DNA from: an uncultured Gammaproteobacteria bacterium
GTDB lineage: Bacteria > Pseudomonadota > Gammaproteobacteria > GCA-001735895
Length of the DNA: 64,000 bases
Direction: 5' to 3'
Assembly: GCA_963768295.1 (NCBI GenBank)
Contig: CAVYHN010000027.1
Coordinates: 127,009 to 191,008 of the forward strand
Shown: positions 9,667 to 57,364 of the stretch, piece after piece
How the letters are laid out: the number at the start of each line of letters is the position of its first letter
Position numbering within the stretch: the stretch's first letter is position 1
Translations under genes and position numbers: made by a program
Notes under the pieces: generated by a model
What the model was told of the DNA's origin: nothing
Database searches by the model: none
Seen by the model: the letters and a program-made list of their open reading frames with translations, nothing else

Positions 9667-10701
9667 ATGGATATAGCTCAACTCCTGGCTTTTGGCGTCA
9701 AACAGGGCGCCTCCGACTTGCACCTGTCAGCGGGATTGCCGCCTATGATTCGCGTCGATGGCGATATTCGTCGCATCAATGTTCCGGAAATGGATCACAA
9801 GCAGGTTCACGACATGATTTATGACATCATGAGTGACAAGCAGCGTAAGGATTACGAGGAATATCTCGAAACCGACTTTTCCTTCGAAATTCCCGGACTG
9901 GCGCGTTTTCGCGTCAACGCGTTTAACCACAATCGCGGCGCCGGTGGCGTGTTTCGGACCATCCCGTCGAAGATTCTCAGCCTCGAGGATTTGAACGCGC
10001 CCAAAATATTCCAGGAAATTTCCGAGTACCCGCGCGGTATCGTGCTGGTTACCGGCCCGACCGGGTCCGGCAAATCGACCACCCTGGCGGCCATGGTCGA
10101 CTACAAAAACGATAGCGAATACGGCCATATCCTGACGGTTGAAGATCCGATCGAATTCGTACACGAAAGTAAAAAATGCCTGGTCAACCAGCGCGAAGTG
10201 CACCGCGATACGCTCGGCTTTAACGAAGCCCTGCGCTCGGCGTTGCGGGAAGACCCCGACACCATCCTGGTCGGCGAGATGCGCGACCTCGAAACCATTC
10301 GCCTGGCCTTGTCCGCGGCCGAAACCGGGCACCTGGTGTTTGGCACCCTGCACACCAGTTCGGCGGCGAAGACCATCGACCGTATCGTCGACGTCTTCCC
10401 GGCGGCGGAAAAAGCGATGGTAAGATCGATGTTATCGGAGTCGCTGAAGGCGGTAATCTCGCAGACCCTGATGAAGAAAATTGGCGGTGGACGTGTCGCT
10501 GCGCATGAAATCATGATCGGCACGCCCGCGATTCGTAACCTGATCCGTGAAGACAAGGTTGCGCAAATGTATTCGGCGATACAGACTGGACAAAATGTCG
10601 GCATGCAGACGCTGGATCAAAATTTGAAATCCATGCTCGCATCGGGCGTGGTGTCCAAAGATGAAGCCCAGCGTAAAGCCGCTAATCCGGATGCGTTATA
10701 A
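9667..10701 (+). CDS. pilT: Type IV pilus retraction ATPase PilT
   Basis: Near-colinear with P. aeruginosa PilT: MDIAQLLAFGVKQGASDLHLSAGLPPMIRVDGD, Walker A GPTGSGKST. Confidence 0.95.
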   Translation: MDIAQLLAFGVKQGASDLHLSAGLPPMIRVDGDIRRINVPEMDHKQVHDMIYDIMSDKQRKDYEEYLETDFSFEIPGLARFRVNAFNHNRGAGGVFRTIPSKILSLEDLNAPKIFQEISEYPRGIVLVTGPTGSGKSTTLAAMVDYKNDSEYGHILTVEDPIEFVHESKKCLVNQREVHRDTLGFNEALRSALREDPDTILVGEMRDLETIRLALSAAETGHLVFGTLHTSSAAKTIDRIVDVFPAAEKAMVRSMLSESLKAVISQTLMKKIGGGRVAAHEIMIGTPAIRNLIREDKVAQMYSAIQTGQNVGMQTLDQNLKSMLASGVVSKDEAQRKAANPDAL

Positions 10702-10732
10702 ACCAGCGATAAAAAGGTGCTAGGGGAGTCTA

Positions 10733-11902
10733 ATGGATCGTAATAAGGCAATCAGTTTTATGCATGACTTGCTGCGCATGATGGTGAGCAAGGATGGGTC
10801 GGACTTGTTTATTACCACGGGCTCGCCGCCGGCGATGAAAATCGATGGCAAGGTCGCGACGGTTTCCAAGCAGAATCTGTCGCCGAACCATACGCAAATG
10901 CTGGCGCGTTCAATCATGAACGACAAGCAGGTTTCCGAGTTCGAGGAAAAGCAGGAGTGTAACTTTTCGATCGCACTGCCCGGGGTGGCGCGTTTTCGTG
11001 TCAATGCATTCGTGCAGCGCGGCAGTTCGGGCCTGGTGCTGCGTATCATCAATTCTGAAATTCCGACTTTCGATGAATTGAACCTGCCGCCGATACTGAA
11101 GGATATCGCGATGACCAAGCGCGGCCTGGTCATTTTCGTCGGTGGCACGGGCTCGGGTAAATCGACTTCGCTGGCTTCCATGGTGGACTACAGAAACCGG
11201 AACACTCACGGGCATATTATTACGATCGAGGACCCGGTCGAATTCGTGCATGACCATCAAAACTGCCTGGTGACCCAACGCGAGGTCGGCGTCGATACCG
11301 AGTCTTATGAAATCGCGCTCAAGAACACGCTGCGGCAGGCGCCGGACGTCATCCTGATCGGCGAGGTGCGCGATCGCGAAGCCATGGAGCACGCGATCGC
11401 CTTCGCTGAAACCGGGCATCTCTGTCTAACGACTCTGCACGCCAACAGCACCAACCAGGCGCTGGATCGTATCATCAACTTTTTCCCCGACGAGCGTCGC
11501 CAGCAGTTGCTGATGGATCTGTCGCTCAACCTCAAGGGGATGGTGTCACAACGCCTGATCCCGAAAATCGATGGTGTCGGTCGTATCCCGGCGATCGAGG
11601 TCATGCTCAATACGCCGTTGATGGCCGACCTTATATTCAAGGGCGACGTGCACGAAATGAAATCGCTTATTGCAAAATCCAACGAGGCCGGAATGCAGAC
11701 CTTCGACCAGGCCCTGTTCGATCTCTACGAAGAGCAAAAAATTACTTTCGAAGACGCCCTGCGTAATGCTGATTCGGTTAACGATATTCGTCTGCGCATA
11801 AAGCTGGAAAGTGACACTGCGCGTAAAACCGGCGTGGTCGAAGACCATCGTGATTTCGAACTCGAGGAGTCGGATGACGATGTCGCTGGCGGTATTATCT
11901 AG
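10733..11902 (+). CDS. pilU: PilU (PilT-family ATPase)
   Basis: Matches the PilU pattern: GSDLFITTGSPPAMKIDG, GGTGSGKSTSLA, LIGEVRDREAMEHAIAFAETGHLCLTTLHAN. Confidence 0.9.
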   Translation: MDRNKAISFMHDLLRMMVSKDGSDLFITTGSPPAMKIDGKVATVSKQNLSPNHTQMLARSIMNDKQVSEFEEKQECNFSIALPGVARFRVNAFVQRGSSGLVLRIINSEIPTFDELNLPPILKDIAMTKRGLVIFVGGTGSGKSTSLASMVDYRNRNTHGHIITIEDPVEFVHDHQNCLVTQREVGVDTESYEIALKNTLRQAPDVILIGEVRDREAMEHAIAFAETGHLCLTTLHANSTNQALDRIINFFPDERRQQLLMDLSLNLKGMVSQRLIPKIDGVGRIPAIEVMLNTPLMADLIFKGDVHEMKSLIAKSNEAGMQTFDQALFDLYEEQKITFEDALRNADSVNDIRLRIKLESDTARKTGVVEDHRDFELEESDDDVAGGII

Positions 11903-11922
11903 CCCTAGCCCGGAGAAGTAGA

Positions 11923-13089
11923 ATGGCCCGCGAACCCACCACGCAACTGCTCGAACCCTATCTGAAAATAATGGTAGATAAACAGGCTTCGGACCTGTAT
12001 TTCGTTACCGGCGCACCGCCCAATATGAAAACCCAGGGCAACACCGCCGCGATTGCCAAGAATCCTTTCCAGAGCGGGCAGGTCATGAAACTGGCATACA
12101 GCCTGCTGAACGACGAGCAGGTGCGGGATTTCGAGATCAACCGTGAATTGAACCTGGGCTTCACGCTGAACGACGTCGGACGCTTCCGCGTCAATATCTT
12201 CATCCAGCGTTCCGAAGTATCGATGGTCATCCGTTACATCAAGTGGGAAATTCCGACTATCGACGAACTCGGCCTGCCGCAGATACTCAAGGAAGTGGTC
12301 ATGAACCAGACCGGCATGGTGCTGGTGGTGGGATCAACCGGTTCCGGTAAGTCGACCACGCTGGCATCGATGCTAAATCATCGCAACAATACTGTCGGCG
12401 GGCATATCCTGACGATCGAGGATCCGATCGAATTCGTGTTTCGGCACGACAAATCGATTGTGTCGCAGCGTGAAGTCGGTATCGATACCCTGAGCTACGC
12501 CAACGCGCTGCGCGAGGCGCTGCGCGAAGCCCCGGAAGTCATCATGATCGGTGAGGCGCGCGACGGCGAAACCATGAAGGCGGCGATCAACTTCGCCGAC
12601 ACCGGTCACCTGTGCCTGACCACGCTGCACGCGGTTAACTCGAACCAGGCGATGGACCGGATCATGAACATGTTTCCGACCGATATGCGTGATCAGCTGT
12701 TGATGGATTTATCGCTCAACCTGAAGGCGGTTATTTCGCAGCGCCTGGTGCCGGGCATGCAGGGTAAACTGGCCTGTGCGGTCGAGATCATGATGAACAC
12801 GCCTTATATTTCAGAACTGTTGCGCGAGGGTAATTTCAACGAGATCAAGGAAATCATGGAGAAGGGCGATACCACCGGTATGCAGACCTTCGACCAGTCG
12901 CTTTACCATCTCTACAAGGCGGATGCGATCACGATCAAGAATGCGCTGGCCTACGCGGATTCCAGTACCAACCTCGAATGGAAGATCAACTTCGGTGGTG
13001 AGCAACCGTCATCGCAGGATACCCGCCACCAGCTGAACAAGCAGGGCGCTGCACTTGAAGAGTTGACCCTGCCCTCCGAAGAAGACTAG
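11923..13089 (+). CDS. Second PilU/PilT-family ATPase paralog
   Basis: Motifs ASDLYFVTGAPPNMKTQG, GSTGSGKSTTLA, GHLCLTTLHA. Third tandem retraction ATPase. Confidence 0.85.
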   Translation: MAREPTTQLLEPYLKIMVDKQASDLYFVTGAPPNMKTQGNTAAIAKNPFQSGQVMKLAYSLLNDEQVRDFEINRELNLGFTLNDVGRFRVNIFIQRSEVSMVIRYIKWEIPTIDELGLPQILKEVVMNQTGMVLVVGSTGSGKSTTLASMLNHRNNTVGGHILTIEDPIEFVFRHDKSIVSQREVGIDTLSYANALREALREAPEVIMIGEARDGETMKAAINFADTGHLCLTTLHAVNSNQAMDRIMNMFPTDMRDQLLMDLSLNLKAVISQRLVPGMQGKLACAVEIMMNTPYISELLREGNFNEIKEIMEKGDTTGMQTFDQSLYHLYKADAITIKNALAYADSSTNLEWKINFGGEQPSSQDTRHQLNKQGAALEELTLPSEED

Positions 13090-14232: not shown

Positions 14233-14262
14233 AGCCCCGCTATCGTGCGGGGCTTTTTTTTA
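14233..14262 (+). terminator. Rho-independent terminator
   Basis: agccccgc-tatcgt-gcggggct hairpin followed by T9. Confidence 0.75.
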
Positions 14263-14270
14263 TTGAATGG

Positions 14271-14375
14271 TGAGTGTCCGAAATTGGCCAAAAAATGTCT
14301 CCCACTAAAGCTCTATGAGCGTCAGCTTACGAGAAAACCGACGCTCAGACTCGATACATCAGGGGCAAGAACCGA
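14271..14375 (+). repeat. Island repeat copy I1 (modules M1-M2)
   Basis: gagtgtccg..ttggcc...gagcgtcagcttacgagaaaaccgacgctc hairpin. Confidence 0.6.
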
Positions 14376-14564
14376 CCCAACTGAGACACTGCTGCCAAAC
14401 ATCTCAGCCAATCAGGTGGTAGATTTAATCCCGATCCACCTAATAAAGTCGAGATAACAATTACCTATAACAAATCAAACGTGGCTATCAGAATAATGTT
14501 TGATGTGTAATTATGAACATCCATCGGGCCGCAAATATTAAACAAAAGATAGGGAGTAAAGATT

Positions 14565-16065: not shown

Positions 16066-16089
16066 AGCCCCGCTCCGGCGGGGTTTTTC
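16066..16089 (+). terminator. Rho-independent terminator
   Basis: gccccgc-tccg-gcgggg hairpin followed by T5. Confidence 0.65.
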
Positions 16090-16099
16090 ATTTCTGCCG

Positions 16100-16262
16100 A
16101 GCGTCTCTTGTTGGCCGATTCGAGAAGCCTGGGAGGCAGATTTCAGCGTCTCCTATTGAGAAAACTGACGCTCACACCTGATGAAGCAGCGGCGATCTAC
16201 GACCCACAACGGACCCTCAGCGTTCCAGCTTTGCCGCGTCCGGCTGCATGCGCTTGTTAGAG
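16100..16262 (+). repeat. Island repeat copy I2, complete (M1-M2-M3 plus the 3' attC-like unit 16204-16262)
   Basis: cttgttggccga...agcgtctcctattgagaaaactgacgct...cagcggcga...CCACAAC..gctgcatgcgcttGTTAGAG. The TTA of the terminal core is the stop codon of minus-strand gene 16257-16877. Confidence 0.7.
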
Positions 16263-16877: not shown

Positions 16878-17135
16878 ACTTTCTCCTTGTTGTGCTTCTT
16901 TCTTCTTAAAACTCTAACTTTGATTTAGACGGATGCTGTATTTTTCGGCAATAGACGGAATCCGCCTATTGCATTTGATTCTTTTTATGAAAATAGATGG
17001 CACGTCATTGTTATTATGTATTTTCCTGGTTCCTATTTCCTAAAAATATTTATGGCAATCCGAGATTCCGCTTTTCGTCAAAAGAGTTATACCAGCCTAT
17101 CCAGGCGAACTCAACGAATGCCCGGTTCGTGCCTG

Positions 17136-17345
17136 AAGCAGTAGTTATATTACAAATCCTGAATGTCGGCTGTTGGCCGAAGATTGCCTCCCGCCCTAGT
17201 TTTTTGAGGGTCTCCTTTGGAGAAAACAGACGCCCAAAAATTCCCATTGAGCGGCAGAAACCGCATCCCGAAACAGACGCTCGCGCCAGTGTCGAACCAA
17301 TTGCGCCGCGGGCGCTTTGTCCGATTGCATGCGCTTGTATGGTTG
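17136..17345 (+). repeat. Island repeat copy I3 (long 5' extension, then M1-M2-M3 and the 3' unit)
   Basis: The 48-bp extension gaagcagtagttatattacaaatcctgaatgtcggctgttggccg is identical to copy I11. It contains the exact 19-mer ttggccgaagattgcctcc. It ends GTCGAAC...gattgcatgcgcttgtatgg. Confidence 0.7.
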
Positions 17346-18535: not shown

Positions 18536-18889
18536 GTGACCGAGGGCGACGCCCGAACTAAACCGCCGACAGCTAAATATGGGCTTTTCCAAGTGCTTCT
18601 CCCGTGGGCATAGTACAAATAACTAGAAGAATAAAAGTTCTATCTGCCAGTATCAATCGGCGAAATCAAATCCAGGATCTATCCTTTTTTTCTGTTATTT
18701 ACTGTAATGCCTGAATAATTGCCCACCGTTTTGCCTTTTGTTCCCTAATGTTTAACAGTTGATTATTTGGAGGGCTCAACTGGTGTTTTATGCAGTTGGT
18801 ACAAATATTGCGATGTTAAGCAAAATTTTGTCATCTATTTTCAATAAACTCTATGTCCGCTTCTGGCTATTCTCGGAAGCCTGGACCTT

Positions 18890-18965
18890 GAATGCAAGCG
18901 TCTGTTATTGAGGGAGTGCCCGCGCCGAGAAGTTTATGATGACTGATTGCGCTTGCTATGTTCCA
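18890..18965 (+). repeat. Island repeat, degenerate 3' unit (I16)
   Basis: gcaagcgtctgttattgaggga...ctgattgcgcttgctatgttcc. It supplies the stop TAG of gene 18956-19213. Confidence 0.45.
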
Positions 18966-19248: not shown

Positions 19249-19370
19249 CGGTTTTTATCCTGATAACATATCGTCACGATATATGTGGGAGGCTGCTATT
19301 GGTCGATCTCAGAAGCTCAACTTTCGAGAATGAGCGCCTCCTGTGAGGAAACCGTGAGGAAACCGGGACA
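19249..19370 (+). repeat. Island repeat copy I4 (5' extension, M1-like, M2-like)
   Basis: ggtttttatcctgataacatat...gggaggctgctattggtcg...gagaatgagcgcctcctgtgaggaaacc. Confidence 0.5.
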
Positions 19371-19534
19371 GATTTAGTTGTTTTTGACTGAACCTACCTC
19401 GAGTAATATATTCACCTGGAGTTATATAAATCTGTCCCGGTATTTTCCGTTCCGGTATTTTCCGGTATTTTTATATTTTGTCTGTGTCGTGAAAGGTATA
19501 ATGACGCAATTTGCGCTGCATACCGGGCACTAGT

Positions 19535-20086: not shown

Positions 20087-20143
20087 TTATGTATCTACTG
20101 AATCGGGGCAAGAGCAGTTAACGGCTGCTCTTCATAATTATCT

Positions 20144-20266
20144 GGGCGTCCGGTGTTGGCCGAAGATTGCCTCCTACCATGACTTGACGAGCGGCAGCTT
20201 ACGAGAAAGTTGCCACTGAAATCATATACACCAGCAGCCGATTTCGGTTATTCAATTTGTTAGGTG
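20144..20266 (+). repeat. Island repeat copy I5
   Basis: gggcgtccggtgttggccgaagattgcctcc...tgccactgaaatcat..cagcagccg...tttGTTAGGT. The TTA of the core is the stop of gene 20260-20499. Confidence 0.65.
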
Positions 20267-20499
20267 GACGATTGGTCATTTTTTCTCTGGTACTCTCGGA
20301 CGGCCAACACGAGGAAGAGAATCAAACACGCCCCGGAAATTACAATCCACGCAATCTTTCCGGCCTCGCTTTCTATTGGTTTTTGAGTCCAGAAAATCAC
20401 CTCAGCATTAGCATAATTTAGTAATGTCAGGGCTCCAATAACCACCGAGCAGAAGGCCAACATGGCGAGCCAGACCAGCATGAACAATTTATGCTTCAT
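20260..20499 (-). CDS. Small membrane protein (2 TM helices)
   Basis: 79 aa with two hydrophobic helices; the stop is embedded in the repeat core ACCTAAC. Confidence 0.45.
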   Translation of the reverse strand: MKHKLFMLVWLAMLAFCSVVIGALTLLNYANAEVIFWTQKPIESEAGKIAWIVISGACLILFLVLAVREYQRKNDQSST

Positions 20500-20524
20500 T
20501 CAGTTCATCGGCTCTTCTCACCTG

Positions 20525-20589
20525 GCGCCTCGCATCAGCGGCAAAATGCGCGCGTAGCGGGCACTTTGTCCGACAGCATGCGCTTGTTA
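20525..20589 (+). repeat. Island repeat copy I6 (3' attC-like unit only)
   Basis: catcagcggcaaaatgcgcgcg...ctttgtccgacagcatgcgcttGTTAGGGC. Confidence 0.6.
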
Positions 20590-20593
20590 GGGC

Positions 20594-20872
20594 TCATTGG
20601 AAAATATTCAAATTTTTTTTCCGTTCCTCGGTGAATTCCCACCATTTTTTTAAAGGGCCACCTTCCATATATCTCACCGCGGAAATGAACACATCAAGAA
20701 CGCATGGGTCGTGTCTCTTTTGTGTGATGCTGCAAAGGTCTCTATATAACTGATATGGATCTTTCCCTATCAGTTCGGTTGGCTTATCCAGGCCTAAAGC
20801 AAAGAAATCTTTCTCAATAGCTAAACCAACGTTTGGGATGTCACGAAATTGGTTTATGTCGCTCCGTTTCAT
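20594..20872 (-). CDS. Helix-hairpin-helix small protein (TfoX-C/Cdd1-like)
   Basis: DIPNVGLAIEKDFFALGL...DPCVLDVFISAVRYMEGG. GTTAGGT lies 14 nt upstream of the ATG and CCCTAAC lies at the stop. Confidence 0.5.
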   Translation of the reverse strand: MKRSDINQFRDIPNVGLAIEKDFFALGLDKPTELIGKDPYQLYRDLCSITQKRHDPCVLDVFISAVRYMEGGPLKKWWEFTEERKKNLNIFQ

Positions 20873-20887
20873 TTCTATTCTTTGATG

Positions 20888-21055
20888 ACCTAACAGTCTA
20901 ATTATAAGGTTTTTGACCTGATAACATATTACCGCTTCAATGATGGGAGGCTGCTCCTGGCCGAAATACGAAGCTCATCGTATGCGATCGAGCGTCTTCT
21001 TTGGGGAAAACAGATCCTCAAATTACATAAATCAGTGGCGATAAACGATCCTAGT
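20888..21055 (+). repeat. Island repeat copy I7 (CCTAAC core, then M1-like, M2 and M3)
   Basis: aCCTAACagt...gggaggctgctcctggccg...gagcgtcttctttggggaaaacaga...atcagtggcgataaacgatcc. Confidence 0.55.
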
Positions 21056-21127
21056 GTGGCTGACTTTTAAGCCACGAATTTTAGGGGAATGTATCTTTCA
21101 CCATTTGATTTTGGCCAATTTTTAAAT

Positions 21128-21988: not shown

Positions 21989-22397
21989 AATTTTTATATT
22001 TTAAGTATGAAAGTTTTAAATACAAGAAGTAGGTCTTGTTTAGCCATAGGCGTAAATAGGAAAATTCAGTGAGTAATTACATTGGCGTGAAAACAATTGT
22101 CTATGGAAATAAGATGGTTGCTTAGTTACCACTGTTTTAAACCGGAATCAGTCTATTCAGCAGAATCGGAGACGGATATGAACACCTCTATCTAAGCTCG
22201 TCCCAAAGCCAATGGCTGCTTGTGGCGAAGATCGCCACCCAGTTCTTGTATTTAAGTGTCTGCTTGTGAAACGCATCGCAAAAAAATCCTTAACGGATCG
22301 AAATTGCGGATTCATTTATACGAAGTGTGTGATGGTAGACATATATTTCCCATGACGCGTCTTATTCTTTAGGTATTATGCGTCACGAAAAATCATT

Positions 22398-22700: not shown

Positions 22701-22750
22701 TCCCATTCTTTTTGGCGTGCAACCTGGTCAGACAGAGTTAAAGTAAAGCT

Positions 22751-22927
22751 CAGTGGCAGCTGTTGGCCGAGGGTCGCCTCTGAACTCTAAGTTTTGAGTG
22801 TCAGCTAACGGGAAAGCAGGCGCTTAAAACTCAAAGATCAACTTCCCGCTAACTACTCAAAGCTGATATTCAGCACCAGGCAAACTGAAGCCGTATTGTT
22901 CTATCCGACTGCATGTGCTTGTTATGG
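22751..22927 (+). repeat. Island repeat copy I8, complete (M1-M2 plus the 3' unit 22847-22927)
   Basis: cagtggcagctgttggccgag...gagtgtcagctaacgggaaagc...CGCTAACtactcaaagctg...atccgactgcatgtgcttGTTATGG. The TTA is the stop of gene 22922-23164. Confidence 0.7.
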
Positions 22928-23164
22928 TTTTTTCTTTTGATCGCCCCCTTTGCTGCCGTTACTATCGCCGATACCATAACCAGAAGGGAAAGATATCCAT
23001 TTCCCATGATCTGCACCATGAGAAATTCCTACTCCCAATATGACCGGCAAAATACCCCACAGACTATCATCATGCAGGATCACGTAAAACCCATATCCGA
23101 GAATGCAAAGCCCTATAATTCTTTGAATATATATTCGTCTAATTGAGTAGTATTGAGTAACCAT
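22922..23164 (-). CDS. Small membrane protein
   Basis: ORF 22922-23173. The ATG at 23164 lies inside the GTTATGG core of repeat I9. Hydrophobic 80-aa product. Confidence 0.4.
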   Translation of the reverse strand: MVTQYYSIRRIYIQRIIGLCILGYGFYVILHDDSLWGILPVILGVGISHGADHGKWISFPSGYGIGDSNGSKGGDQKKKP

Positions 23165-23219
23165 AACGCTCAAATCAGCGGCACAGCTTTGCTAGGTCCG
23201 ACTGCATGCGCCTGTATGG
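23161..23219 (+). repeat. Island repeat copy I9: minimal 59-bp attC-like unit with inverted 7-bp termini
   Basis: CCATAAC-gctcaaatcagcggcacagctttgctaggtccgactgcatgcgcc-TGTATGG. It fills the whole spacer between two minus-strand genes. Confidence 0.65.
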
Positions 23220-23239
23220 TTCTGTGTGCAATATTGGAA

Positions 23240-23584
23240 TTACCCAGCTCTACTACCGTTTGGCATGTGCAGTTCTGGCATAGCCAAACAAGGTGTGAGC
23301 TTGTCGGCATAACCAATATCGAAAAGCATCCCTTGAGATACTTCACCAGCCATTTTTCGGTCTGGTAAATTAACGACGAACAAGGCTTGCATGCCTTCAA
23401 TCTCATACGGGTTTTCACGCTTTTGCTTTATACCAGCGAGAATTGAGCGAATATGATTCCCAGGGTCTACGGCCAACTTGTCAGAATCCTTTACTTCTGA
23501 CACTGTTGTAATCGTGCCGACTCGAATGTCTAGCTTTTCAAAATCCTCGAATGCGATTAATTCTTTAATAGGTGCTTGATTCAT
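23240..23584 (-). CDS. tRNA-binding (EMAP/CsaA/YgjH-like) domain protein
   Basis: IAFEDFEKLDIRVGTITTVSEVKDSDKL...VVNLPDRKMAGEVSQGMLF; canonical GTTAGGC sits 47 nt upstream of the ATG. Confidence 0.65.
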   Translation of the reverse strand: MNQAPIKELIAFEDFEKLDIRVGTITTVSEVKDSDKLAVDPGNHIRSILAGIKQKRENPYEIEGMQALFVVNLPDRKMAGEVSQGMLFDIGYADKLTPCLAMPELHMPNGSRAG

Positions 23585-23625
23585 CTTAATGTCTTTTAGT
23601 TAAATTTGTTGCAATAGCCTAACAG

Positions 23626-23790
23626 TAGCGTTAAAAAATAATTGACCGTACGACATATTATCACTTTATTATTGGGGGGTCGCTATTGGCCGAAGATTGC
23701 CTCCTGGCCCAGCCAATTGAGCGTCTCCTTGCGAGAAAACTGCCACTGAAATCATTAGAATCAGCAGCCGCGTCCGATCCTAAGCCGACA
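23626..23790 (+). repeat. Island repeat copy I10 (GCCTAAC core, M1, M2, M3)
   Basis: GCCTAACagtagcg...gctattggccgaagattgcctcc...gagcgtctccttgcgagaaaactgccactgaaatcat...cagcagccg. Confidence 0.65.
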
Positions 23791-23934: not shown

Positions 23935-25371
23935 TCATTGAAACGCAGGAATAATATATTTCTTCATAATATTATCAGCGGATGAAGTACCATCGAAATC
24001 GTATGCAGTAGTAACAACAACCAGGTTTAATTTTTTTATAATAATTATTCGTTGACCTCCAAAACCAAAAGCGGCTATTGCCCTATATTTCTTGCCGTTA
24101 ACGTAATAAATTCTGCTCCACCAATAATATCCATATCCGCTCCATTTGTTATCATTGGTTGTAATATGTTTTGTTGTGGATTCTTCTATCCACTCTTCAT
24201 CTATGATTTGCTGATCGTTCCAAGTTCCCTTCTCCAACATAATTTGACCAATTTTTGCCATATCACGGGGGCGTAATCTAAGTCCTCCTGCTGAATTCTG
24301 CCGACCGTCCGTTTGTTTTTCCCAATACGCATTTTCTATACATAAATTTGATAACGAGCTTTTTCCGACAAAATCCGCGAGGGATGCTGCACCTGTTGCA
24401 TTCTTTATTATTTCGCCTATTACGGTGACATATCCACCACTGTAGGTAAAAACCTCTCCCGGAACATATACCGAAGGAACCGAAAGAGTAAACTCAATGG
24501 AATCAGTACTATTCATCTCTCGCCTTCGAATGTTATTTGGATGTTTATATGATGGGTTATGCTCATCCCAGTCTAATCCGGCGGACATGGTCAATAAGTC
24601 TTTAATTGTGATTTTCTCCTTTTTACCAATAAGGATAGATTTGTACTTTGGTAAGTATTTAAGGATAGGGTCATCGACACTTTCAATAAAACCTCTATTT
24701 ATTGCATCTCCTAAAAGTAAGGAGGTAAAGCTTTTGCTGATCGACTGCATCTGATGGTTTTCTTCCTGGCTCCATCCCCGAAAATACTGCTCTACAACAA
24801 GCTTTCCATCTTTCAAAATCAACAAACCGTTTTGTTTCCCGAATGAACCGTTTTTCAGTTTTTCAATGAATTCGTTTGTTATTTTATCGTCGCCACTAAC
24901 TTCGATAACGGAACCCGTTTTGATACCTTGTTGGCATTCTGCTTGTGTTTGGTTTTCGCCTATCTTGTCCAAACCATCTAACGAATCGTAAATACCTTCC
25001 TCATATCTTGTTTGAGGTATATGCAATCTTGTAAGGCTTTTTTCCAATTGACCTTTTTCTTTGATTGTCAAATGCTGATATTTTCCATTTTCCAATTTAT
25101 TAAATCGACCACGAATATTGAAGCTTTTCAGACGAAGGTCCGTATCCGTTTCCAGGATTATTTCATCTTTTCCTCTCCAATCTTTTCCAAACAGTTTCCC
25201 ATTTTGTTCATTAATGATTACTTTATAGTCTCCAAGGATTACATTATAAGCTCCACTTGCACGATCAGAATAGAAGCCAACATACTTGTCACTTTCAAAA
25301 TTGGTAATTCCAGAGCTACCCGCACATGCAGATAGAAATAAAACAGATGTGATCACTAGATAATATTTCAT
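23935..25371 (-). CDS. Serine hydrolase of the beta-lactamase/PBP family with an N-terminal lipoprotein extension
   Basis: Lipobox LSAC; SISKSF (SxxK) active-site motif; 478 aa; very AT-rich. Confidence 0.6.
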   Translation of the reverse strand: MKYYLVITSVLFLSACAGSSGITNFESDKYVGFYSDRASGAYNVILGDYKVIINEQNGKLFGKDWRGKDEIILETDTDLRLKSFNIRGRFNKLENGKYQHLTIKEKGQLEKSLTRLHIPQTRYEEGIYDSLDGLDKIGENQTQAECQQGIKTGSVIEVSGDDKITNEFIEKLKNGSFGKQNGLLILKDGKLVVEQYFRGWSQEENHQMQSISKSFTSLLLGDAINRGFIESVDDPILKYLPKYKSILIGKKEKITIKDLLTMSAGLDWDEHNPSYKHPNNIRRREMNSTDSIEFTLSVPSVYVPGEVFTYSGGYVTVIGEIIKNATGAASLADFVGKSSLSNLCIENAYWEKQTDGRQNSAGGLRLRPRDMAKIGQIMLEKGTWNDQQIIDEEWIEESTTKHITTNDNKWSGYGYYWWSRIYYVNGKKYRAIAAFGFGGQRIIIIKKLNLVVVTTAYDFDGTSSADNIMKKYIIPAFQ

Positions 25372-25488
25372 GAACTCTTTATTCTCCTTAAGAGCTAACA
25401 GAGAATTCTACAGACTCCCTGTTTACTGAGTTTTAGGGAGTCTGTAAAACCCAGTATACGTGAATGGGCAAAGGTCTCCTAAGTGCCG

Positions 25489-25600
25489 GAAGCAGTAGTT
25501 ATATTACAAATCCTGAATGTCGGCTGTTGGCCGTACCAGGAAGCTCGAAACCCGCGTTTAAGTGTCTGTTTACGAGATAAAATCACGCAAGACAAAATAC
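25489..25600 (+). repeat. Island repeat copy I11
   Basis: Shares the 48-bp 5' extension with I3, then ttggccgtaccaggaagctcg...gtttaagtgtctgtttacgagataaaatcacgc. Confidence 0.6.
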
Positions 25601-25602
25601 AG

Positions 25603-25624
25603 CAAACTGATCGATTTAACTCAT
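25603..25624 (+). promoter_or_regulatory. Conserved motif ATTTAACyCATTTGGGTGAwG upstream of plus-strand cassette genes; candidate promoter or operator
   Basis: A near-identical 21-mer occurs at 13461-13481, upstream of gene 13528. This copy is about 70 nt upstream of gene 25693. Confidence 0.3.
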
Positions 25625-25953: not shown

Positions 25954-25973
25954 CTCAGGCCTTTTATTTATGC

Positions 25974-26040
25974 GGCCGTTCCTGGCCGAAGATTGCCTCC
26001 GAACTTTTTTTTGAGTGTCGGCCTAGGGAAAGCTGATCCT
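25974..26040 (+). repeat. Island repeat copy I12 (M1-M2)
   Basis: gccgttcctggccgaagattgcctccgaactttttttgagtgtcggcctagggaaagc. Confidence 0.6.
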
Positions 26041-26121
26041 TTCCTATTTTGCCTTTGCAGTTAAGTCGGATACCCGTAGCCTCGAGTGGAACAAGTAAAC
26101 TGTCAGCACAAATTACAATAT

Positions 26122-27632: not shown

Positions 27633-27802
27633 TTTCTCACCATGATCGGTTAGTAGAACTTCGATTGAGGTGAGTATAAATCCCCAAATTTCTGGCTACG
27701 ACCCGTCGAGGAATAGTAGCGGAATATGCAACTAAAGGGATTGCTGCCTACTACATCTTCGGAGAAATCCATGACTTGATTACACATAATCAAGCATTTG
27801 GC

Positions 27803-27880
27803 GAGTGTCAGCTCCTGGCCGTACCAAGAAGCTCGCAACTCTTTAATGAGCGTCTCCTTTGGAGAATGAGCAGGACTGGC
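27803..27880 (+). repeat. Island repeat copy I14 (M1-M2)
   Basis: gagtgtcagctcctggccgtaccaagaagctcg...gagcgtctcctttggagaatgagc. Confidence 0.55.
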
Positions 27881-28022
27881 CCACGATAATTTCACCCTGC
27901 CATGGGTATGGCTTAGTCGATTTGCTCGGGTTTGTTGCAAGCAGGTGTTTATTCCTCTTTTACTCATTGGGTCATCGCTGAGCCTACGTTAAACTGAGAA
28001 TAATCGTTTTTCGCCGAGGTAA

Positions 28023-31889: not shown

Positions 31890-31997
31890 AAATCGTTCAG
31901 TTGTTGTCACAGAGGGCGGCAATTTAATTCGGGATATCGCATGTTAAGCTGGAAATAGAATTATTCAATTCCCTAAGTATAGCTAGCCTTTTATCCC

Positions 31998-32130
31998 AGT
32001 GTCCGTTGTTGGCCGAAGAGCCTCCCACCTTAGTTGCGTGAGGGTCTGCTATTCAGAATAGTTGCCGCTCAAACTCGATGAATCAGCGGCGATAACCGAC
32101 TCTTAACGGACTCCGAGTCCGTCATGCCGG
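31998..32130 (+). repeat. Island repeat copy I15, located outside the AT-rich island
   Basis: cagtgtccgttgttggccgaagagcctccc...gagggtctgctattcagaatag...aatcagcggcgataaccgactc, within a 525-bp gene-free gap. Confidence 0.55.
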
Positions 32131-32414
32131 CCTGCGAGCCGATACGACAGCTGCTGGCCGTTCTCCGCCTCTGAAAAACCTGAAAACAGTGTCTGCAATC
32201 GAGCAGACAGACATTCAAAAACGATTCATAGGGGGCGGCTAAAGACCGAGGTCGGTGGCTAATGCTGCTCGCGGCGTTCCGCTTGAACGAATCGCTATGT
32301 TGACCCGAATATGCGCCAGGCAACATTGCCATAGGCTGAGGTATTGCGCCTGAGTTTATAGTTGCCTCTGAATAGGGCTGACGGAGCGCACAGGCTAGAC
32401 GTGGTTCTGGCTCC

Positions 32415-48790: not shown

Positions 48791-51700
48791 ACGCGGTTTA
48801 CTGCAGCGTCAACCGGTTGAGCTAATCAAGAATTTTCTGTATTACATCGCCCAGCCGGAATGCGATGGGCCCAAGACCCAGGCGATCAAGACCGCTTATC
48901 GACTGGAGCAGTTCCTGCCTTCCGAATCGGCACGTAGCGAAGTGCTGGATAATATCGCTGGACCGAACCAGGCCCTGTTAAAAACGGTCGCCGAAGCGAT
49001 GAAAGCCGACATCGAGTCGGTCAAATCCACCCTCGAGGTATACGTCAACGGGGATTTGTCCAGGGTCAGCGCGTTGAAGGATCTGCCGGGGGAAATGCAT
49101 ATCATTTCCGACACCCTGGCCATGATCGGGCTCGGCTCGCAGCGGCAGCTGATAGAAGCTCAGATTGAAGTCGTCAAGAACATCGTCGGAGGCAATAGCC
49201 CTGCCGAAGAAGAGCAGCTGCTATCGATGGCTGGCGAATTGTTGCAGGTGGAGCAGTCGCTCGACCAGATGCAGAAGCGGCAGCCGCTAAGCGCGAGCCA
49301 ACCGAAATCGGAAAGCGACGTGTCGCGCGACTATGAACTGGACAGCGTGCTCAGCGCGGTCGTCACCGCCACCCTCGACGATATCCAGAAAACCAAGAAC
49401 GCAATCCTCGAGTTCATAAAAGATCCGAGCCGCGGTGAAAATATCGATCTCTGCATCAGCTTGATGAGCGAATCGCGGGGTGCGCTGGAGCTGCTCGGCG
49501 AGCAGCGAGCGGTCGCCGTGGTTGAGGGGTTACTGACCTATTTAAGGGGTTACGACATTGTTGCCTTCATGGACTCCAGTCGGCTGGATGCGCTGTCTCA
49601 GGCCGTTGTCAGCCTGGAGTACTACCTCGAAGCGCTGGGCGAGCGCCGCAGCGACGCCAGCAGCATTCTTGATTTTGCCGACGTTCAGCTGCAGGAGCTG
49701 CTGGCAAGCATGCCCGCCGAGCCGGTAGCGGAGGCCGCCGGGGAACCGGTTGTGGTCGACGATCAATCCACGACACCTGAATCGCCGGCGGTAGCCGGCG
49801 TCGCACCAGCGCCGGAAGATAACGCTGGCGCCAGCGTTGCCGAATCCCCCGCCGCGGTCGTAGCGGAACTCGCGGTGGATGCCGACGCCGTGGAGTTGGA
49901 GTATGAAGCAGATGAAACCATAATAAACGAATACGGCCCTGAAACCGCGCCCGCGGCGGACGGGTCGTTAGCGCAGAACTCGGCCGCCGCGCAACCGGCA
50001 GATACCAATTTCGACGCAGAGCCGGAAGCAATTCATGCGTCTCCCGAAGACGCCCGTGACTCGTCTGAAGTCGAGTCGCGCGAGCCGATCACAACCGACG
50101 CAGTCGAGACGCTTAAGCCGGCGGCGGAAAACCAGCTTAAGATCGTGCCGATCGATGATGAGGCAGTGGTTTTAAAGCCTGGCAGCGATCCCGAGATTCT
50201 CGAAATTTATCTCGAGGAGGCCGAGGAAGAATCGCAGAATATCGCGCGCCTGCAGCAGGACTGGCTGTTACATCCCGAAGATGAAAACGCGGTAAAGAAT
50301 ATCCGCCGGGCTTTTCATACCATCAAGGGTAGCGGGCGACTGGTGGGCGCGATGAAAATCGGTGAGTTTGCCTGGGACTTCGAGCAATTGCTGAATCGGC
50401 TTATTGACCGGACCATTCCTCCCAGCAAGCAGATTATCGATGCGGTCGGTGAAGCGGCCCGGGTATTGCCTGAGCTGGTGACCGAATTGAAGACATCGGT
50501 TGCGCCGCAGGCGGATGTCAACTATCTGCGGGGACTGGCGCGTGCCCTGGCGGAGTTCAAGGCCGAACAGCTGATGATCGATCATACGCAGCGGCGAGCG
50601 CTGGTGGAATCACCCGATGATCGAATTACCGATGGCGATGAAACCGAGTGGAAAGGCATGGGTGTCGGTGCGACCACGCAGATAATTCCCCCTGACAAAC
50701 TAACCGCCGCACTGCTCGAGGAAATCGAGCCTGACACCATGCGCGTCGATCGGGATGCTTTCGAGACCGTCAAGGCGCAGGCCGAGCAGTCGGGCGCCGG
50801 CAAAGAGCCCGATTTCGATGATACGCTGCTGGCGCAGCCGCCGGAAATCCCGCGCGCCGGGGAAATGCGCGAAGCCTCGGAGACGGCGAACTTCACGGTT
50901 GCCGATTTTGAGTTTGACGAGTCGTCAGTGGAGTACACGCAGGCGATCGATTATGCGCACAGACCAGACGAGGAAAACGAGGTCGAGTTTGAGAAAATCG
51001 ATGCCGTGCAACTCGAGTCGGTTGAAGCGGACGCCGATGAAGCGATCAAGATAGAAACCATCGGCGAGGATTTCCTCGGTGATGACTTCGACGATTCGGC
51101 GGACGATGAAATATCGATCGAAGCGGTGCAGACGCCGCCGGCTACCGAGCCTGAAGCTGAGGCTGAGGCTGAGGTCGCCGCAAGCGCCGAGGTCGAGGCC
51201 GATATCCCGATGATCGAAGTTGTCGAGCCGGAAGTCGAAGAGCTGGTAGCGGATACCCCTTTTGCCGAAGCCGAAGCCGAAGCCGAAGTTGAAGCCGAAG
51301 TTGAAGCCGAAGTTGAAGCCGAAGTTGAAGCCGAAGTTGAAGCCGAAGTTGAAGCCGAAGTTGAAGCCGAAGCCGAAGTTGCAGCCGCGACAGAAACGGC
51401 TGACTCGTCACCGGAGCTGGTGGAACTGACCGAGGTTGAAGAAATTGTCATGCAGGCGCCCGAAACCGAGATCGCGGGCATGACGCTCGAGGCCAACGAT
51501 CTCGAAGCTTCCGCAGATGATGCATCGGCGTCGGCAGCGCCCGCGGCCGAGAGTTTGCGGGATGAGGCTACGCCGGCGGATGCCCCCGACCAGGCATCTG
51601 AGCAGGAGACCCCCCCCGACCCTTTAGTGGATATGACAGGGAGCCAGGTGCCTGGAGAAGAGGTAGAGGCAGGCGAGTCCAGGGTCCAAGAGCCGGCCGC

Positions 51701-57196: not shown

Positions 57197-57364
57197 AAAT
57201 AATCTCCAAACTATTTATGAGCGCCGTTGTATTGATCCTGTGGGCGAGCCTGGCAGCCGGGCTGTCGCAACGCTCCTCGCACACAAGTCCCCTAATTCAG
57301 GGGACCGGTTAGTGTATCTATATACGCGCGGCTGTCAATTTGGATCAGTCTCGCTGGCGGCGGT

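Follow-up and report, generated by a model that had tools for sequence, protein, structure and literature searches.

A probable integron-type gene cassette with a mosaic attC site and a tRNA-binding OB-fold gene in an uncultured gammaproteobacterium

We analysed a 64-kb window of an uncultured gammaproteobacterial genome (the whole stretch of DNA under study, 64,000 nt) and find that nucleotides 23622–23161 of the minus strand very probably constitute an integron-type gene cassette, composed of a TTAGGC start, a leader, a promoterless ORF for a tRNA-binding OB-fold protein and a mosaic 59-nt attC site. As elements, the cassette and the attC sites are of a known type; what is new is the junction repeat beside them. 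The cassette and its upstream boundary comprise the following features, listed in the direction of the minus strand:

23617–23662, minus strand: Z element, a mini attC-like sequence of ~46 nt, GATAAT..hairpin..ACTGTTAGGC
23585–23622, minus strand: 5′ end of the cassette, TTAGGC followed by a 32-nt leader
23240–23584, minus strand: tRNA_bind ORF of 114 aa (ATG at 23584, TAA at 23240), a stand-alone OB-fold domain (PF01588)
23220–23239, minus strand: 20-nt spacer between stop codon and attC, 16/20 nt identical to the homologous cassette at locus L008 (ttccaatattgcacacagaa vs ttttatattgcacacagag)
23161–23219, minus strand: attC site of 59 nt, consisting of R″ ACCATAC, AGGCG, L″ CATGCAGTCGGAC, loop, L′ GTGCCGCTGA, TTTGAGC and R′ GTTATGG

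The 59-nt attC site

A sequence-only reading of this DNA had described a 59-bp element beginning 20 nt after the stop codon, with inverted CCATAAC/TGTATGG ends and with the ATG of the next gene inside its terminal core. Direct reading of nucleotides 23219–23161 confirms all of this: the ends are CCATAAC...TGTATGG on the plus strand and CCATACAGG...GCGTTATGG on the minus strand (in full CCATACAGGCGCATGCAGTCGGACCTAGCAAAGCTGTGCCGCTGATTTGAGCGTTATGG), and the in-frame ATG at 23164–23162 lies within GTTATGG. The description of the site as minimal did not hold, as 59 nt is an ordinary attC size. We predicted single-stranded DNA folds for both strands, as had been proposed, and obtained an attC-like hairpin of R box, spacer and L box, in which a 7-bp outer stem (AACCATA/TATGGTT) is followed by an internal loop and then an inner stem. 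In the structure of the family alignment A2 described below, unpaired G, T and A fall on the 5′ (R″/L″) arm of the ORF-sense strand, so that the complementary bottom strand has C, A and T unpaired on its 3′ arm. The window plus strand therefore corresponds to the bottom strand of a canonical attC site, and the orientation of the ORFs is the usual one. On this bottom strand the extrahelical bases follow each other closely (T-N3-A-N3-C), unlike the preferred T-N6-G; attCdfrA1 provides a natural precedent for extrahelical A and C, rather than T and G, on this strand (PMC3053210). Folding energies are unexceptional, with −10.9 and −8.8 kcal/mol for the two strands (z −1.3 and −0.3 relative to shuffles). 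In R′ (GTTATGG), the GTT exchange triplet is intact and there are two departures from GTTRRRY. R″ (ACCATAC) lacks the conserved AAC and can be read as CCATA-C, with one base missing opposite GTTATGG, where CCATAAC is expected. The CATAC form of R″ recurs at 17344 of the window and in another MAG (L081:5165).

The site belongs to a family. The motif YYMTAAC-AAGCGCATGCAGTCGGAC recurs immediately 3′ of five minus-strand ORFs in the window. In alignment A2, which combines ten attC-like sites from the window and six other contigs, 77.8% of cells are paired in the R box plus L box structure, compared to 28–44% in slid-partner controls; covariation amounts to 0.218 versus 0.119 in shuffles (0/500 shuffles as high), and nine pairs carry double changes. 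Covariance model R2, built from eight attC sites of other contigs and containing no window sequences, matches the 59-mer at 23221–23159 over its full length with 47.1 bits (E 9.6e-13), the top score in 64 kb, and model R1 scores the 59-mer at 65.3 bits. The next R2 matches lie at 20593–20518, 16263–16202, 17344–17270 and 22928–22853, and each of the five lies on the minus strand directly behind the 3′ end of an ORF of that strand. Rfam returned nothing for the 59-mer at gathering or E-value thresholds. Among the further sites, the one at 20518–20593 (minus strand) is canonical except that its R′ is mutated from GTT to GCC (GCGCCAGGT), which shows that decay does occur in this array. This loss probably locks a Cdd1-family ORF (20594–20872) and a 79-aa ORF (20260–20499) into one unit.

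Cassette boundary, protein and other contexts

On the minus strand, the 5′ boundary reads ...ACT-GTTAGGC (23623–23617) and then continues into the leader. GTTAGGC ends the Z element and bounds the tRNA_bind cassette on its 5′ side; the junction falls between G23623 and T23622. The earlier reading had correctly noted this heptamer upstream of the ATG and placed it at a distance of 47 nt; the distance is 32 nt, or 39 nt counted from its G. Within the 64-kb window GTTAGGC occurs once, against 5.4 occurrences expected by chance, so that the heptamer has no evidential value by itself and does not recur here as a core. It gains meaning by homology to the same cassette boundary in L008: homology of the window to the L008 cassette starts at window position 23627, and the corresponding place in L008 reads ...tactGTTAGGCtat. 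The leader is 62% identical to that of L008, in which a Shine–Dalgarno-like GAGAAG motif is present that is not kept in the window. Three copies of Z were identified in the window, with the form GATAAY-ATG-TTATCAGG..CCTTATAA..ACT-GTTAGGN:

23662–23617, minus strand: Z upstream of the tRNA_bind cassette
~20933–20880, minus strand: Z copy ending in GTTAGGT
~19275–19225, minus strand: Z copy ending in GTTAATG

Z ranges from ~46 to 50 nt in length, is also found at loci L024, L030, L074, L080, L086, L136 and L148, and is present in L008 in a hairpin-deleted version.

The 114-aa product matches the tRNA_bind domain PF01588 with an E-value of 1.7e-13 (Pfam) and has >7900 homologues, the best of which are 80–88% identical, typically 117 aa long, and derive from Photobacterium and from MAGs of Chloroflexota, Desulfobacterales and Azotimanducaceae. 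It had been called a CsaA-like tRNA-binding protein, an assignment that stands with respect to the tRNA-binding domain; the protein resembles Trbp111 and the MetRS C-terminal domain more closely than CsaA. In NCBIfam it remains under every cutoff, the top partial matches being MetRS C-terminal models, followed by CsaA and tRNA-binding protein models; the CsaA families score 44.8 bits against a cutoff of 171 (TIGR02222) and 32.6 against 119.65 (NF007496). For the closest cassette homologue, P0002 (88% identical), solved structures are matched at E-values of 2e-15 to 1e-8, with 2cwp, 1mkh and 1pyb (Trbp111) as the nearest. Like Trbp111, the MetRS C-terminal domain, CsaA and YgjH (PDB 2cwp, 1mkh, 1pyb, 2nzh, 3ers), the window protein consists of one tRNA_bind domain of ~110–117 aa. 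The KL.kL.VDfG motif is conserved in that family, and here the window copy differs: in a 15-sequence alignment it alone lacks three residues of the KLMKL strand (KLM of SDKLMKLTVDFG), and it carries an F to P exchange in the conserved VDFG. This copy of the gene looks slightly damaged and may have lost its function.

We found the same gene between different neighbours in metagenomic data, as the sequence-only reading had suggested looking for. In L008/L009 (88% identical protein) the gene is preceded by ...tactG|TTAGGCtat with DUF3024 upstream and is followed by cacacagaGCCTAAC...GTTAGGC, that is, a GCCTAAC...GTTAGGC attC site; the other neighbour is an ORF of unknown function. In L010 the gene lies between G|TTAGGT and a 59-nt GCCTAAC...GTTAGGC attC site, with HEAT_2 and DUF7000 as neighbours. 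In the window its neighbours are a beta-lactamase-fold gene and an 80-aa ORF. At L001–L007 and L126–L129, in Photobacterium-like and other chromosomal settings, the homologue has no attC and is a plain gene of the chromosome. Further contexts of the tRNA_bind cassette were not found among the 120 metagenome loci searched. The reading had named two observations that would speak against a cassette, namely a 59-mer without attC-like folding and homologues that always occur in one fixed context. The 59-mer folds like attC and matches the attC model, and the neighbours of the gene change.

The upstream cassette gene (23935–25371, minus strand) encodes a 478-aa beta-lactamase-fold protein (PF00144) with a lipoprotein-like N-terminus. 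This protein is far under the class C beta-lactamase cutoffs; in NCBIfam its best match, likewise under the threshold, is 3-succinylated cholic acid synthase.

Mismatched ends and the neighbouring 80-aa cassette

The 5′ TTRRRY of a cassette is expected to be complementary to its own R″. In the window, TTAGGC stands against ACCATAC. The mismatch of 5′ and 3′ cores pointed out from the sequence is therefore real, and it reflects later change: the ends of the homologous L008 cassette match (TTAGGC and GCCTAAC), and the right half of the window site is shared with locus L136. Over R″ and the positions directly after it, 4/9 bases depart from L008, against 16/20 identical nucleotides in the adjoining spacer. 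The downstream cassette consists of two features:

22925–23164, minus strand: next cassette ORF, a small hydrophobic protein of 80 aa, with its ATG inside R′ (TT-ATG-G)
22853–22928, minus strand: weaker attC site of the 80-aa cassette, R″ ACCATAAC (R1 14.5 bits, E 0.04; R2 11.3 bits)

Here the rule holds, as the 5′ TTATGGTT is the exact complement of the cassette's own R″ AACCATAAC, and this validates G|TTATGG as a junction. The 3′ end of the weaker attC site (22853–22867) overlaps a copy of the junction repeat described below (22741–22867). The 80-aa protein matches no family in Pfam or NCBIfam and has homologues P0128–P0131. The ORF is found at L136 (97% across its first 63 residues) as well as L130; both loci have the same start, TTATGGTTACTCAA, and in both the ORF is preceded by GCCGCTGATTTGAGYRTTATGG, but the left halves differ. 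Window and L136 share a block of ~95% identity extending from ~23190, in the attC loop, to ~22905, in L″ of the next attC site, and are unrelated outside it. Since L136 has the right half of the 59-mer in common with the window, together with the downstream ORF, the site is a mosaic.

Homology blocks ending in the middle of attC sites are not predicted by exchange at G|TT. An exchange inside the conserved 18-nt left half (AAGCGCATGCAGTCGGAC) would explain the mosaic, and its most likely cause would be that neighbouring attC sites underwent homologous exchange in their highly conserved left halves, rather than integrase action. By descent, the right half (loop, L′ and R′) goes with the downstream 80-aa ORF, and the left box, ACCATAC, has ceased to complement the cassette's own TTAGGC. 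Judged from the mosaic attC site and the in-frame deletion of three residues, the cassette gives the impression of a resident in slow decay, not of a fresh capture.

Array setting, junction repeat and competing explanations

The cassette lies in an array of 18 kb (~14.2–32.3 kb) with a GC content of 0.39–0.52 versus 0.53–0.63 in the flanks, which contains unrelated small genes including PhyH, the beta-lactamase-fold protein, Cdd1, VF530, FHA, DUF411 and YdbH with DUF1318. The array-flanking ORFs encode a PEP-CTERM protein, a RIO1 kinase, a protein with a weak DUF4116 match (E 5e-4, below the Pfam cutoff) and AsnC. We detected no integron integrase in the 64 kb, using tblastn with an IntI query and Pfam scans of flanking ORFs; within the window this covers ~14 kb on the left side of the array and ~32 kb on its right. 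No attI was found beside the array in the window, so that neither component of a complete integron (intI and attI) is seen there. [quoted passage not shown] 2016, PMC4889954), and with five co-oriented attC matches between 16.2 and 23.2 kb and no intI in the window, the array fits this definition. Extending the search to 1.57 Mb of array-bearing DNA revealed no IntI.

On two metagenome contigs, L148 (214–2233) and L232 (1850–3959), a tyrosine recombinase of 291–292 aa, followed by an IS91-family transposase, lies beside copies of the junction repeat, the insertion in L148 being directly after a Z element. As integron integrases these recombinases were rejected, with 157–169 bits against a cutoff of 265.

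Several features lie outside the array. Just to its left (9826–13089) are two adjacent paralogous genes, ~70% identical over stretches of 100–300 nt (repeat families D3, D6 and D9), which we read, purely from this repeat pattern, as putatively pilT/pilU-like. The GC-rich core-genome flank contains an SAH riboswitch at 57212–57284 (minus strand; RF01057, 57 bits, E 7e-8, Rfam). At 51147–51402 there are ~10 tandem copies of a 12-nt repeat, GAAGCCGAAGTT, which, if within a gene, would encode an acidic Glu-Ala/Glu-Val repeat.

Most cassette junctions of the array carry an additional imperfect palindromic repeat of ~130 nt, which we refer to as Type B. The tRNA_bind cassette with its plain attC site, which had been called the cleanest single example of the cassette architecture, is not the typical junction of the array. 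The window contains 15 copies, all on the minus strand:

14260–14386
16087–16215
17151–17274
18841–18935
19276–19389
20135–20251
20935–21059
22208–22270 (partial)
22741–22867
23663–23790, between the beta-lactamase-fold gene (23935–25371) and Z; nhmmer 87.7 bits; repeats D2/D4
25506–25604
25962–26074
27794–27892
31987–32112
32143–32255

The consensus of the repeat is tgagnGTCnG..TTGGGTCGtaaaTCGCCGCTGA..TTTGAGCGTCTGTTTTCTCCAAAGGAGACGCTCA..GGGAGGCAATCTTCGGCCAnnAGCGGACnCTCA, and some copies have Z directly after them. In total, 515 copies were counted in 1.57 Mb of related MAG and metagenome contigs, co-oriented within arrays. Searching a 17-mer of the repeat retrieved many contigs of several Gammaproteobacteria MAGs, often at contig ends, and an overlapping 18-mer places the family in marine-type metagenome contigs. 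Type B has no match in Rfam at gathering or E-value thresholds, and RNAalifold gave no consensus structure. A long hairpin specified by hand is 69% paired without covariation, so that Type B is not a structure-conserved site of the attC kind. The halves of Type B resemble inverted copies of the attC 3′ half, and canonical attC sites occur in three forms: (i) complete and stand-alone, (ii) cut off after L′, with a full Type B copy adjoining, or (iii) as a left half fused to a Type B right half.

We considered three readings of Type B. A canonical long attC site was rejected, since whichever strand is read, GTT falls in the 5′ arm and AAC in the 3′ arm, the reverse of attC polarity. An inside-out attC site cleaved at GGCCAA|C was rejected as well, since the bases after CGGCCA vary and AAC is present in about one-third of the copies. 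A MITE inserted into attC is unsupported; there is no target duplication and no locus with the flanks joined or together. Pairs of Type B copies that share one flank break at the centre or at the conserved core GGAGGCAATCTTCGGCCA, two fixed points of exchange between genomes that bound a module of ~55 nt. Pairs sharing the downstream flank all break at the core (23/23), and among those sharing the upstream flank ~9 break at the centre and ~6 at the core. Segments 17129–17179 and 25483–25533 are 98% identical over 51 nt, comprising the Type B 3′ end and 40 nt of flank, and differ in the remaining repeat, another sign of patchwork exchange between junctions.

The Vibrio cholerae superintegron carries the VCR, a long, lineage-specific and co-oriented palindromic repeat at the cassette junctions of large arrays. 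Type B resembles it in length (~125–130 nt), lineage specificity, common orientation, palindromic character and position at the junctions of large arrays. It differs in the order of its arms, GTT (5′) and AAC (3′), which is the reverse of attC; AAC is present in just about one copy in three, covariation is absent, and a canonical attC half often lies beside the repeat or is fused to it. That Type B is an undescribed recombination or junction element, working with or instead of attC, is a rather speculative proposal.

The cassette itself shares with integron cassettes and CALINs (PMC4889954) a single ORF without a promoter, an imperfect palindrome after it that has R and L boxes and ends resembling RYYYAAC and GTTRRRY, unpaired bases on one arm, sites co-oriented with the ORFs, unrelated small genes, a GC content below that of the flanks, and occurrence of the cassette in other arrays. 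It departs from them in R″, which is ACCATAC and does not end in AAC, in a 5′ end that does not complement R″, in the mosaic attC site, in the missing intI and attI within 64 kb, and in the extra ~130-nt repeat at most junctions of the array. By the standard mechanism, an integron integrase would bind attC as a folded bottom strand (here the plus strand) at the R and L boxes, and exchange at G|TT would excise the unit as a circle to be re-inserted elsewhere; the strand used and the activity of the site are putative.

That the 59-mer is a mere intergenic transcription terminator or a chance palindrome is hardly credible. A GC-containing hairpin right after a stop codon, with an unremarkable energy, is what such a reading would expect, but there is no T-run, the match to an attC model derived from other loci is full-length at E ~1e-12, the R and L box anatomy of the family is conserved and covaries, and a homologous gene elsewhere has a canonical attC site at the same place. 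A somewhat unlikely alternative holds that the 59-mer has become an inactive relic inside a fused two-gene unit made up of the tRNA_bind gene and the 80-aa ORF. This unit would move, if at all, only between the GTTAGGC of Z and the attC/Type B sequence at ~22.85 kb. The R″ without AAC, mismatched to the cassette's own 5′ TTAGGC, the lost R′ of the neighbouring site at 20593–20518 and the unique deletion in the protein are consistent with this. Against it, the GTT of R′ is intact and the R box still pairs over 7 bp; the recurrence of the CATAC form of R″ suggests a tolerated variant, and the tRNA_bind gene and the 80-aa ORF each occur separately elsewhere.

Slightly better placed, though still a minority view, is the possibility that the units are shuffled mainly by a process other than IntI exchange at G|TT, with the attC sites here being largely historical marks. 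The conserved halves of attC and Type B could serve as places of homologous recombination or template switching, or Type B could be the substrate of an unknown recombinase. Such a process would account for the block shared with L136, which ends at the apices of two attC sites, and for the one-flank Type B pairs, which break in the conserved centre or core; no Type B copy has both flanks together elsewhere, and the 1.57 Mb of array-bearing DNA yielded no IntI. However, the 5′ TTRRRY of the 80-aa, DUF3024 and L008 tRNA_bind cassettes exactly complement their own R″, which is the footprint of G|TT exchange, and with short contigs and arrays at contig ends, an intI gene could be unassembled. We favour the reading of 23622–23161 as an integron-type cassette whose attC site has become mosaic.

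The cassette adds a non-resistance member to the environmental pool, a tRNA-binding OB-fold protein conserved at 80–88% identity across distant phyla, and represents a clean example of attC sites turning mosaic in resident arrays. If Type B is indeed a junction element, the tRNA_bind cassette with its plain 59-mer would be an exception in a system that mostly uses another junction. Its canonical boundaries serve as an anchor for reading the array and expose a lineage-specific junction repeat and mid-hairpin exchange points, both of which lie outside standard integron models.
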